Both the position numbers and the translations under genes were made by a program. DNA of 64,000 nucleotides from Escherichia coli O157:H7 (GTDB lineage: Bacteria > Pseudomonadota > Gammaproteobacteria > Enterobacterales > Enterobacteriaceae), in assembly GCF_013167455.1 (NCBI RefSeq), contig NZ_CP038328.1, one strand, 5' to 3'. This document shows, piece after piece, positions 58,399 through 62,833 of this stretch. Positions within the stretch are counted from its first letter, which is position 1. The number at the start of each line of letters is the position of its first letter. Below the pieces are notes generated by a model. That model did not search any database and had not been told where the DNA came from. It saw only the letters and a program-made list of their open reading frames with translations.

Positions 58399-59592
58399 AT
58401 GACGAAAGTGACACGCGCAGTAATTGTGGGAGGCGGGATCGGCGGTGCGGCAACTGCGCTGTCACTGGCCCGCCTGGGGATCAAAGTGGTGCTGCTGGAA
58501 AAGGCGCATGAGATCGGTGAGATTGGCGCGGGCATCCAGTTGGGGCCAAATGCGTTTTCGGCGCTGGACAGCCTCGGCGTCGGCGAAGTTGCCCGCCAGC
58601 GCGCGGTGTTTACCGATCACATTACCATGATGGATGCGGTGAACGCCGAAGAAGTGGTGTGCATTGAAACCGGGCAGGCCTTTCGTGACCATTTCGGCGG
58701 CCCTTACGCGGTGATCCACCGGGTTGATATTCACGCCTCGGTGTGGGAAGCGGTACTGACGCATCCGGACGTGGAATATCACACCTCCACCAACGTCGTG
58801 GATATTCGCGAGACGGAAGACGATGTCACCGTGTTTGACGATCGCGGCAATAGCTGGACCGGCGATATTCTGATTGGCTGTGACGGCGTGAAGTCAGTGG
58901 TGCGCCAGAGCTTATTGGGCGATGCGCCGCGTGTCACCGGACATGTTGTCTACCGTGCGGTTATCGATCGTGCCGATATGCCGGAAGATTTGCGCATTAA
59001 CGCACCGGTACTGTGGGCGGGGCCGCATTGTCACTTGGTGCATTACCCTTTGCGCGGCGGCAAGCAGTATAACCTGGTGGTAACATTCCACAGCCGCCAG
59101 CAGGAAGAGTGGGGCGTGAAGGATGGTAGTAAAGAGGAAGTGCTCTCTTACTTTGAAGGGATTCACCCCCGTCCGCGCCAGATGTTGGATAAACCGACTT
59201 CATGGCGACGCTGGTCAACCGCTGACCGTGAACCGGTGGCGAAGTGGGGAACGAAGCGCATAACGCTTGTGGGCGATTCGGCCCATCCGGTGGCGCAATA
59301 TATGGCGCAGGGAGCCTGTATGGCGCTGGAAGATGCAGTAACGCTGGGTAAGGCGCTGGCGCAGTGTGAGGGTGATGCGGCGCAAGCCTTTGCGCTGTAT
59401 GAGTCGGTACGAATTCCGCGCACCGCGCGCATCGTCTGGTCGACCCGTGAAATGGGGCGGGTTTACCACGCCGCAGGGGTAGAACGCCAGGTACGTAATC
59501 TGCTGTGGAAAGGGAAATCGCAGGCAGAATTTTATCGCGGCATGGAGTGGTTGTACGGCTGGAAAGAAGATAACTGTTTGCAACCACGCTAA
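58399..59592 (+). CDS. mhbM: FAD-dependent 3-hydroxybenzoate 6-hydroxylase (flavoprotein monooxygenase)
   Basis: 397-aa ORF with GxGxxG FAD motif (VIVGGGIGGAATA) and salicylate hydroxylase-like core. Confidence 0.8.
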   Translation: MTKVTRAVIVGGGIGGAATALSLARLGIKVVLLEKAHEIGEIGAGIQLGPNAFSALDSLGVGEVARQRAVFTDHITMMDAVNAEEVVCIETGQAFRDHFGGPYAVIHRVDIHASVWEAVLTHPDVEYHTSTNVVDIRETEDDVTVFDDRGNSWTGDILIGCDGVKSVVRQSLLGDAPRVTGHVVYRAVIDRADMPEDLRINAPVLWAGPHCHLVHYPLRGGKQYNLVVTFHSRQQEEWGVKDGSKEEVLSYFEGIHPRPRQMLDKPTSWRRWSTADREPVAKWGTKRITLVGDSAHPVAQYMAQGACMALEDAVTLGKALAQCEGDAAQAFALYESVRIPRTARIVWSTREMGRVYHAAGVERQVRNLLWKGKSQAEFYRGMEWLYGWKEDNCLQPR

Positions 59593-59751: not shown

Positions 59752-60702
59752 ATGCGTGTGTTACTGGCTCCGATGGAGGGAGTGCTTGACTCTCTGGTGC
59801 GTGAATTGCTGACCGAAGTTAACGACTACGATCTGTGCATCACCGAGTTCGTCCGCGTGGTGGATCAACTGCTGCCGGTGAAAGTCTTTCATCGCATTTG
59901 CCCTGAGCTACAAAACGCCAGCCGGACACCATCCGGTACGCTGGTGCGCGTGCAGTTGTTGGGTCAGTTCCCACAATGGCTGGCAGAGAACGCCGCCCGT
60001 GCGGTGGAATTAGGTTCCTGGGGCGTGGATCTCAATTGCGGCTGCCCGTCGAAAACGGTTAACGGTAGCGGTGGTGGGGCGACGTTACTCAAAGATCCTG
60101 AACTCATCTACCAGGGGGCAAAAGCGATGCGTGAAGCTGTACCGGCGCATTTGCCCGTCAGCGTGAAAGTGCGTCTGGGCTGGGACAGCGGTGAGAAGAA
60201 ATTTGAAATCGCCGATGCGGTTCAACAGGCTGGTGCTACGGAGCTGGTGGTGCATGGACGGACAAAAGAGCAGGGTTACCGCGCGGAGCATATTGACTGG
60301 CAGGCGATTGGCGAGATTCGCCAGCGGCTGAATATTCCGGTGATTGCCAACGGCGAAATCTGGGACTGGCAGAGCGCGCAAGAATGCATGGCGATCAGCG
60401 GCTGCGACTCAGTGATGATTGGTCGCGGGGCGCTCAATATTCCCAACCTGAGCCGGGTAGTAAAATATAACGAACCGCGAATGCCGTGGCCGGAGGTGGT
60501 TGCTTTGCTGCAAAAATATACCCGTCTGGAAAAGCAGGGCGATACCGGGTTATATCACGTAGCGCGGATTAAACAGTGGTTGAGTTATTTGCGTAAAGAA
60601 TACGATGAAGCAACAGAATTATTTCAGCATGTTCGTGTGTTGAATAATTCCCCTGATATTGCAAGGGCTATTCAGGCAATTGATATCGGTAAGCTGCGAT
60701 AA
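59752..60702 (+). CDS. dusC: tRNA-dihydrouridine(16) synthase DusC
   Basis: 315-aa product from [14 protein letters not shown]; track ORF has a 19-codon upstream extension. Confidence 0.9.
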
Positions 60703-61089
60703 TAGTGGAATCGCAGTTTATCAGAAACAATGAATCGCTTATTCAGCTTCATCATCTTGTTGCGCTCCTTTCATGAGCTAAGCCACATATTGCCACTGGC
60801 GCAAGGAGCGCGCAGGGGGAGGACAATCGCCTCCTCCCCCTGCACCCCCGGGCTCTGGCGAACAAAATCGCCGCTGCGCGGTACCTTCAGCTTATCCCCT
60901 TCGGCTACCGGGTCGGGCGCGAGGAAACGTCCTTGTAAGACGCGCCCTCAGCCCACATCCATGTGGGCTGCCCCGGCCTTCGGGGAACGCTTCAGCGATT
61001 TTGACGCCACCAACACCGGAGCTGTTTGCAAATCAAGTACACAAAATATCTAGTTCCTGACCTGACAACTTATATGTCATATCTGATTT

Positions 61090-61173
61090 TTAAAATATCA
61101 TCTTAAATACGCCAGTCACCACCAGTAGCCCAATCAGGAAAATAATCAATACAGCCCAGAGTATAATTTTCAT
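61090..61173 (-). CDS. yohP: 27-aa single-TM small membrane protein YohP
   Basis: Manual translation of the minus strand gives MKIILWAVLIIFLIGLLVVTGVFKMIF then stop; below the ORF-track size cutoff; weak RBS (aaaggaacgccaATG). Confidence 0.6.
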   Translation of the reverse strand: MKIILWAVLIIFLIGLLVVTGVFKMIF

Positions 61174-61396
61174 TGGCGTTCCTTTATTTGTGAGTGCTGA
61201 ATAAGTATAGGAAAAAACGAAGCCCTTTGCCGTTATCCATAAACGATTAAGATAAATCGGAAGATATCATTCACTTAGTGTATATTTTTCTGGATATGTC
61301 GTTTTATTGCTACTGATGTATTGCCACGCGAAACTAAAAAATATATCGCAACACACGGTAATCTCCGCGCACCTTTTCTTACCTGATTATTCCCCC

Positions 61397-62833
61397 ATGA
61401 ATCGTGATTCCTTTTATCCAGCCATCGCCTGTTTTCCGCTGTTACTGATGCTGGCCGGGTGTGCGCCTATGCATGAAACCCGCCAGGCGTTAAGCCAGCA
61501 AACGCCCGCTGCACAAGTTGACACCGCATTACCCACGGCGCTGAAAAATGGTTGGCCAGACAGCCAATGGTGGCTGGAGTATCACGATAATCAACTCACT
61601 TCCTTAATTAACAATGCACTACAGAACGCACCGGATATGCAGGTGGCTGAACAGCGCATTCAGTTAGCTGAAGCCCAGGCGAAGGCAGTTGCTACTCAGG
61701 ATGGTCCGCAGATCGACTTTTCTGCGGATATGGAGCGGCAAAAAATGTCGGCAGAAGGGCTAATGGGGCCGTTTGCTCTGAACGATCCGGCCGCAGGTAC
61801 GACCGGTCCGTGGTACACCAACGGAACTTTTGGCTTAACGGCGGGCTGGCATCTCGATATCTGGGGAAAGAATCGGGCGGAGGTTACTGCCCGCCTGGGT
61901 ACGGTTAAAGCACGGGCGGCGGAACGCGAGCAAACCCGCCAATTGCTGGCTGGCAGCGTAGCCCGCCTGTACTGGGAGTGGCAAACCCAGGCGGCGTTAA
62001 ACACGGTCTTGCAGCAAATCGAAAAAGAGCAGAACACCATTATCGCGACCGATCGCCAGCTATATCAGAACGGGATTACTTCTTCAGTTGAAGGTGTGGA
62101 AACCGATATTAATGCCAGCAAAACCCGGCAGCAGCTCAACGATGTCGCGGGGAAAATGAAAATTATTGAGGCACGGTTAATTGCACTCACAAATCACCAG
62201 ACTAAGTCATTGACGCTTAAACCGGTGGCGTTGCCGAAAGTGGCAAGCCAGCTTCCTGATGAACTGGGGTACTCCTTACTGGCCCGGCGGGCAGATTTGC
62301 AGGCGGCGCACTGGTACGTTGAGTCATCGCTAAGCACCATTGATGCGGCAAAAGCGGCATTTTATCCTGACATCAACCTGATGGCCTTCCTGCAACAGGA
62401 TGCGTTGCACTTAAGCGATCTGTTCCGTCATTCCGCGCAGCAAATGGGCGTTACGGCAGGCCTGACGCTACCCATTTTCGATAGTGGTCGTCTTAACGCC
62501 AATCTCGATATCGCAAAAGCCGAAAGCAACTTGTCTATCGCCAGCTACAACAAAGCGGTGGTTGAAGCGGTGAATGACGTGGCGCGGGCAGCCAGTCAGG
62601 TTCAGACACTGGCGGAGAAAAACCAGCATCAGGCGCAAATTGAGCGCGATGCCTTGCGTGTGGTAGGTCTTGCGCAGGCCCGCTTTAACGCGGGCATCAT
62701 TGCTGGTTCCCGCGTCAGCGAAGCCAGAATCCCCGCGCTGCGTGAGCGGGCCAATGGCCTGTTATTGCAAGGGCAGTGGCTGGATGCCTCCATTCAACTC
62801 ACTGGTGCGTTGGGCGGGGGTTACAAACGCTGA
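61397..62833 (+). CDS. mdtQ: Outer membrane efflux lipoprotein (OMF/NodT family), apparently intact MdtQ
   Basis: 478-aa product from MNRDSFYPAIACFPLLLMLAGC (lipobox LAGC); continuous reading frame with no internal stop. Confidence 0.8.
   Translation: MNRDSFYPAIACFPLLLMLAGCAPMHETRQALSQQTPAAQVDTALPTALKNGWPDSQWWLEYHDNQLTSLINNALQNAPDMQVAEQRIQLAEAQAKAVATQDGPQIDFSADMERQKMSAEGLMGPFALNDPAAGTTGPWYTNGTFGLTAGWHLDIWGKNRAEVTARLGTVKARAAEREQTRQLLAGSVARLYWEWQTQAALNTVLQQIEKEQNTIIATDRQLYQNGITSSVEGVETDINASKTRQQLNDVAGKMKIIEARLIALTNHQTKSLTLKPVALPKVASQLPDELGYSLLARRADLQAAHWYVESSLSTIDAAKAAFYPDINLMAFLQQDALHLSDLFRHSAQQMGVTAGLTLPIFDSGRLNANLDIAKAESNLSIASYNKAVVEAVNDVARAASQVQTLAEKNQHQAQIERDALRVVGLAQARFNAGIIAGSRVSEARIPALRERANGLLLQGQWLDASIQLTGALGGGYKR

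Follow-up and report, generated by a model that had tools for sequence, protein, structure and literature searches.

The 27-codon gene yohP beside dusC in Escherichia coli O157:H7: a known small membrane protein with a conserved reading frame and a variable 3′ flank

The short minus-strand ORF between dusC and mdtQ in the window (the whole 64,000-nt stretch of E. coli O157:H7 DNA analysed here) is yohP, a gene that is already known and well characterised, and thus not new. Taken as a whole, the evidence is best explained, in our view almost certainly, by a genuine and previously characterised small-protein gene that works by the mechanism published for K-12. We found no evidence that contradicts this identity and, judged from the substitution pattern across genera, the protein is under clear purifying selection. 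According to a passage of PMC12719787 that cites Hemm et al., yohP has been annotated since 2008-2009, and it now serves as a current model for the insertion of very small membrane proteins and for metabolic silencing. The present case can also be used as a control, as it represents a genuine 27-codon gene that is recoverable from raw sequence.

The gene, its signals and its identity

The earlier note had read a 27-codon ORF from the minus strand at 61090-61173, and both direct translation and an ORF listing with a 20-aa minimum recover the same frame. Its minus-strand letters run ATG AAA ATT ... TTT TAA and encode MKIILWAVLIIFLIGLLVVTGVFKMIF, i.e. 27 sense codons followed by a TAA stop. Since this ATG is the first start after an upstream in-frame stop, there is no competing longer form. 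A list restricted to ORFs of at least 60 aa would hide yohP, which illustrates how length cut-offs conceal real genes. The features of the gene and its 3′ side are as follows.

61090..61173, minus strand: yohP CDS, supported by translation, ORF listing, RefSeq annotation, family models and coding-type substitutions
61180..61184, minus strand: Shine-Dalgarno sequence AAGGA of yohP, 6 nt from the ATG, read directly from the sequence
61204..61210, minus strand: probable -10 element C-TATACT of yohP, with the C at -13, of the sigma-S type, proposed from conservation
61014..61089, minus strand: 3′ flank of yohP, variable between E. coli lineages
60742..61013 (conserved block ~60755-61020), minus strand, here in the yohP sense: GC-rich structured repeat of 272 bp, outside the gene proper

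By its length alone the ORF is unremarkable: the window contains 386 ATG ORFs of 20-50 aa, and 88 ORFs of 20 aa or longer overlap its last 5 kb. What raises yohP above chance is the conservation of its frame, which is considered in the next section. Among the 386 short ORFs, YohP is the most hydrophobic, with a GRAVY of 2.47 (mean -0.11, sd 0.68), and the best stretch of 19 residues reaches a Kyte-Doolittle mean of 2.96, in line with the single transmembrane helix proposed in the earlier note. The sequence features one hydrophobic helix between the lysines K2 and K24, with G15 and G21 located inside IGLLVVTGV. The genomic setting was also described correctly beforehand: yohP faces dusC, a plus-strand gene that ends at 60702, in convergent orientation, and the GC-rich element (~60742-61013) lies between the two, a short distance from yohP.

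Signals for translation and transcription are recognisable upstream. In each of the 15 orthologous upstream regions that were aligned, a Shine-Dalgarno sequence (AAGGA, AGGGA or GGAG) is retained with similar spacing. Beyond it, the block TTTCCTATACT / CCTATACT is the sole conserved stretch, the rest of the upstream region having diverged; Escherichia, Citrobacter, Salmonella and Buttiauxella all share CCTATACT, and Franconibacter lacks it. Sigma-S favours a TATACT hexamer with a C in front of it. A simple sigma-70 scan did not call the yohP -10 site, as would be expected given that there is no match to a -35 element. Judging from the sequence, transcription probably starts near 61196-61198, which would give a 5′ UTR of ~24 nt.

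The putative -10 element fits what has been published on the expression of yohP. The Salmonella orthologue is sigma-S-dependent and belongs to a group of genes with sigma-S-type -10 features; its transcript, STnc1330, is abundant in stationary phase, and an rpoS mutant contains hardly any detectable 3xFlag-YohP (PMC5437024). In K-12, likewise, the protein is induced in stationary phase: chromosomally SPA-tagged YohP accumulates as stationary phase proceeds from early to late, and it also increases in minimal medium and when oxygen is limiting (PMC12719787). Earlier-reported induction by SDS/EDTA and by H2O2 was not reproduced in that study (PMC12719787).

The match to YohP proposed in the earlier note is supported by annotation and by curated family models. 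Over the 721 bases around the gene, the sequence matches E. coli O157:H7 chromosomes with 100% identity, and RefSeq annotates a 'small membrane protein YohP' (WP_000691708.1) in such an identical chromosome, at the exact yohP coordinates and within the dusC-mdtQ interval. The peptide scores 67.3 bits against the NCBIfam equivalog model NF011345 (cut-off 58), with residues 1-27 aligned to profile positions 1-27, and 50.6 bits against Pfam PF25659 (cut-off 27). It is identical to K-12 b4679, with which the window shares not only the 27 amino acids but also the position between mdtQ and dusC, the Shine-Dalgarno sequence, the ATG and 220 nt upstream. The exact YohP sequence is recorded as 'protein YohP' on at least 1000 contigs, and the mdtQ-yohP-dusC placement recurs in RefSeq O157, in K-12 and in 17 species-level loci. 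No related sequence was found among solved structures.

The divergent neighbour mdtQ (61397-62833, plus strand) is annotated as an intact outer-membrane multidrug-resistance gene here, whereas it is a pseudogene in K-12 MG1655.

Conservation of the reading frame and competing explanations

Within E. coli, yohP and its upstream region are nearly universal: 5421 of 5426 complete genomes carry them, and the median copy number is one. For the comparison across genera, we gathered 80 species-level loci with the neighbouring DusC as a synteny anchor and searched them by tblastn and with an unfiltered HMM. A 27-codon YohP ORF adjoins dusC in 17 of the 80. The Escherichia representatives are E. coli, E. 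whittamii, Escherichia MOD1-EC7003 and E1V33; the others comprise eight Citrobacter species, one MAG labelled Raoultella, two Salmonella enterica subspecies, one Buttiauxella and Franconibacter helveticus. The HMM, built from seven distinct YohP sequences and run unfiltered over all short ORFs of 82 loci, revealed no additional divergent homologue near dusC.

The orthologues are uniform in architecture: each begins with ATG and runs for 27 sense codons to a stop at one fixed position, for which TAA, TAG and TGA are all used. In the 15 distinct coding sequences, variable columns are distributed as 10/2/23 over codon positions 1, 2 and 3 (chi-square p = 6.6e-5), and the first-position changes are mostly synonymous changes of Leu codons. 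Residues 14-27 (IGLLVVTGVFKMIF) are invariant in this set although most of the codons there vary. K2, G15, G21 and K24, invariant in all orthologues, are the residues that have been tested experimentally and for which a motif has been described (PMC7549839). When the gene of the window is compared with four Citrobacter and Salmonella sequences by the Nei-Gojobori method, dN/dS is 0.02-0.06 and dS exceeds 1; in the comparisons with Buttiauxella and Franconibacter the synonymous sites are saturated, and hence the ratio is not computable. The earlier note had singled out the conservation of the frame in related genomes as a check on the gene, and the 27-codon frame is indeed kept across genera. 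Purifying selection on the protein is thus found where a lack of frame conservation would have spoken against it. The dusC-synteny analysis of yohP provides a clean positive example of coding-type conservation for a mini-ORF.

At the same time, the distribution of the gene is patchy. In E. albertii NBRC 107761 (L005:1208-1226), the equivalent of window 60818-61231 has been cleanly deleted, with 17 bp left between the flanks; the lost segment comprises the larger part of the repeat, the entire yohP CDS and the -10 box. In four Citrobacter species (L009, L010, L013 and L019), dusC and mdtQ are adjacent without yohP. Together, these cases imply that yohP is dispensable and has been lost repeatedly. 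When the sequence up to 3 kb from dusC was searched in Klebsiella, Enterobacter, Kosakonia, Pectobacterium, Serratia, Yersinia, Erwinia and others, no YohP-like ORF came to light; yohP may sit elsewhere in these genomes. The gene order has been stated to be conserved in most gamma-proteobacteria (PMC12719787); our sampled loci, searched in the dusC neighbourhood only, are at odds with this statement.

Two other explanations of the ORF have to be weighed. According to the first, YohP would be the toxin of a type I toxin-antitoxin-like module, in which a cis-antisense RNA, expressed from a promoter overlapping the 3′ end of the gene, restrains its translation; we consider this very improbable. 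The peptide is small, hydrophobic and membrane-depolarising, like the TisB, Hok, Ldr and Ibs toxins, a parallel that the published authors have themselves drawn, and a promoter scan returned one candidate site on the opposite strand.

61074-61101, plus strand: sigma-70-like site ATGTCA-16-TATCAT, antisense to the 3′ end of yohP

Moreover, the 3′ flank of K-12 yohP, otherwise non-homologous, carries ATGACA-16-TATCAT with the same spacing. However, antisense promoter-like sites are not more frequent than in shuffled sequence (1 versus 1.5 expected in this strain, 1 versus 1.2 in K-12), a 9-nt insertion changes the distance between the hexamers in E. whittamii and in E. coli E69, and Citrobacter and Salmonella lack the site. 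As its TATCAT lies inside the conserved yohP codons 25-27, the conservation of this hexamer is explained by coding. Published work further shows that depolarisation by YohP is sublethal and that native stationary-phase levels of the protein are high. Pfam searched at E <= 1 returns only the YohP family PF25659 and no toxin family (Hok, Ldr, Ibs, TisB, ShoB and others). The search for YohP homologues on plasmids and phages also speaks against a toxin, tblastn having returned nothing at E <= 1, although this is a weak negative because the low-complexity filter may mask so hydrophobic a query. TisB, HokB, LdrD and IbsC are thus functional analogues, i.e. small hydrophobic helices that reduce the proton motive force and favour states resembling dormancy, from which YohP differs in having no supported antisense antitoxin, in being sublethal at native levels and in showing no sequence relationship.

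Even less probable, and effectively refuted, is the explanation that the ORF is a chance frame in a non-coding sRNA of which the RNA, and not the peptide, is functional: although chance ORFs of this size are common and the Salmonella transcript was first catalogued as the non-coding sRNA STnc1330 (PMC5437024), selection on the RNA alone would not leave amino acids unchanged where synonymous sites are saturated, and the 10/2/23 third-position excess, the low dN/dS, the length, start and stop fixed across genera, the published detection of tagged YohP in both E. coli and Salmonella, and a 3′ flank that varies even within E. coli all argue against it. No Rfam family matched the yohP transcript.

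Published function and comparison with other small proteins

For yohP as a small-protein gene, the course of events in the O157:H7 strain can be outlined by combining two kinds of material. The ORF, its identity, its signals, its conservation and the -10 box come from the present analysis, and expression, insertion and physiology from the literature, while we infer the transcription start site and the 3′ end. A promoter of the sigma-S type, with CTATACT as its likely -10 box, would drive a short yohP mRNA in stationary phase and under nutrient limitation, and the Shine-Dalgarno sequence and ATG would then direct the synthesis of YohP, whose 27 residues amount to little more than one transmembrane helix with K2 and K24 on either side.

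By analogy with K-12, the U-rich mRNA would reach the membrane independently of its translation; in K-12, yohP mRNA does so without being translated, and U content is one determinant of this targeting (PMC10066597). The composition of the CDS fits this published determinant, its U content being 40.7% compared with 24.4% for the window. After translation, SRP/FtsY would recognise the finished peptide and SecYEG or YidC would insert it, as K-12 experiments indicate: SRP binds YohP post-translationally and, together with FtsY, mediates delivery to either of the two (PMC7549839). Once inserted, YohP is expected to adopt mainly an N-out/C-in orientation and to form dimers that need G15. Indeed, K-12 YohP is found in the inner-membrane fraction, is carbonate-resistant, adopts mostly this N-out/C-in topology and forms SDS-resistant dimers via G15 (PMC7549839).

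At stationary-phase levels, YohP would then partially dissipate the membrane potential, as it does in K-12 experiments. Its production has been reported to cause sublethal depolarisation, induction of the phage-shock (psp) response, accumulation of (p)ppGpp, nucleoid condensation and lower metabolic activity, and deletion of yohP leads to greater sensitivity to ciprofloxacin and oxidative stress (PMC12719787, PMC12542507). As a limitation, the authors state that most of the effects were obtained by premature expression from a plasmid in exponential phase, and that the deletion phenotypes are mild.

A close relative described outside Escherichia is the Salmonella protein, a 27-aa orthologue that is 92.6% identical (MKILLWAILIIFLIGLLVVTGVFKMIF) and is likewise encoded beside dusC, with the same CCTATACT -10 box and a Shine-Dalgarno sequence. 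It differs on the 3′ side, where a short region follows straight after the stop and the spacer lacks the Escherichia structured repeat. Several E. coli proteins resemble YohP in kind, YncL and YkgR among them, being shorter than 50 aa and having one transmembrane helix. YncL is stress-induced (by heat shock, in E. coli) and sigma-S-dependent in Salmonella (PMC5437024); like YohP, it has been published to cause nucleoid condensation through depolarisation, and YkgR, also like YohP, cross-links to SRP. Neither of the two shows sequence homology to YohP, and they belong to separate Pfam and NCBIfam families.

The 3′ flank and the neighbouring structured repeat

Downstream of its stop codon, yohP in the window differs markedly from its K-12 counterpart. 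Homology between the two ends 2 nt past the stop, the region 3′ of it is non-homologous, and the 272-bp structured repeat, which fills most of the dusC-yohP spacer and is without RefSeq annotation, has the opposite orientation. The K-12 copy is inverted relative to flanks that are 100% identical, with 88.6% identity between the repeats (window 60689-61089 versus L082:1567-1949), and the short spacers on either side of the inverted repeat are non-homologous between the O157-type and K-12-type arrangements. Among the Escherichia loci, L001, L003, L006 and L007 have the orientation of the window, whereas K-12 (L082), L002 and L004 have the inverted one, in which the repeat is in the same sense as dusC. 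We estimate that the O157-type arrangement occurs in ~37% of complete E. coli, on the basis of 1999 of 5426 genomes with at least 80% query coverage.

The repeat is dispersed in E. coli and Klebsiella: E. coli genomes carry it at a median of 3 places and one K. pneumoniae chromosome at as many as 13, and further copies occupy spacers such as aqpZ-lysO. Copies outside the window were located at L082:1607-1877 (K-12), L083:2501-2766 and L084-L086:1501-1716. Eight copies aligned with a mean identity of 84%. From the alignment, RNAalifold predicts 77 pairs for the yohP-sense strand, 12 of them with compensatory double changes, and 70 pairs for the other strand; several helices rely on G-U pairs that are found only on the yohP-sense strand. 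It is also this strand that always matches the Rfam family TwoAYGGAY (RF01731), at a sub-threshold 25.9-30.9 bits against a gathering score of 43. A literature search with the sequence of the repeat hairpin gave no match. The repeat may represent an undescribed or divergent family of structured-RNA repeats.

A scan for intrinsic terminators downstream of yohP detected no canonical terminator in either the window or K-12. As no terminator precedes the repeat, read-through from yohP into it is plausible, and in O157-type strains the repeat may form part of the yohP 3′ UTR. It is conceivable, though on balance rather unlikely, that the sense-oriented TwoAYGGAY-like repeat of O157-type E. coli acts as a lineage-specific 3′ UTR that alters the termination or stability of the yohP mRNA and, through it, the stationary-phase dose of YohP. 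If true, this would be a natural orientation polymorphism that tunes the dose of a membrane-depolarising peptide.

In three loci outside Escherichia, namely Citrobacter amalonaticus (L011), the Raoultella-labelled MAG (L014) and Citrobacter sp. On2M (L016), a GC hairpin, GGCCAC-TCCG-GTGGCC, directly follows the yohP stop. This Citrobacter-type hairpin resembles the stem of a terminator and is missing in Escherichia, where the repeat fills the spacer.

The other side of dusC also differs between the two strains. Upstream of dusC in the window (58399-59592 and upstream, plus strand) are genes of a gentisate-type pathway, encoding 3-hydroxybenzoate 6-monooxygenase and maleylacetoacetate isomerase (maiA), whereas in K-12 yohJ-yohK come directly after dusC; this suggests a strain-specific insertion at the dusC junction.
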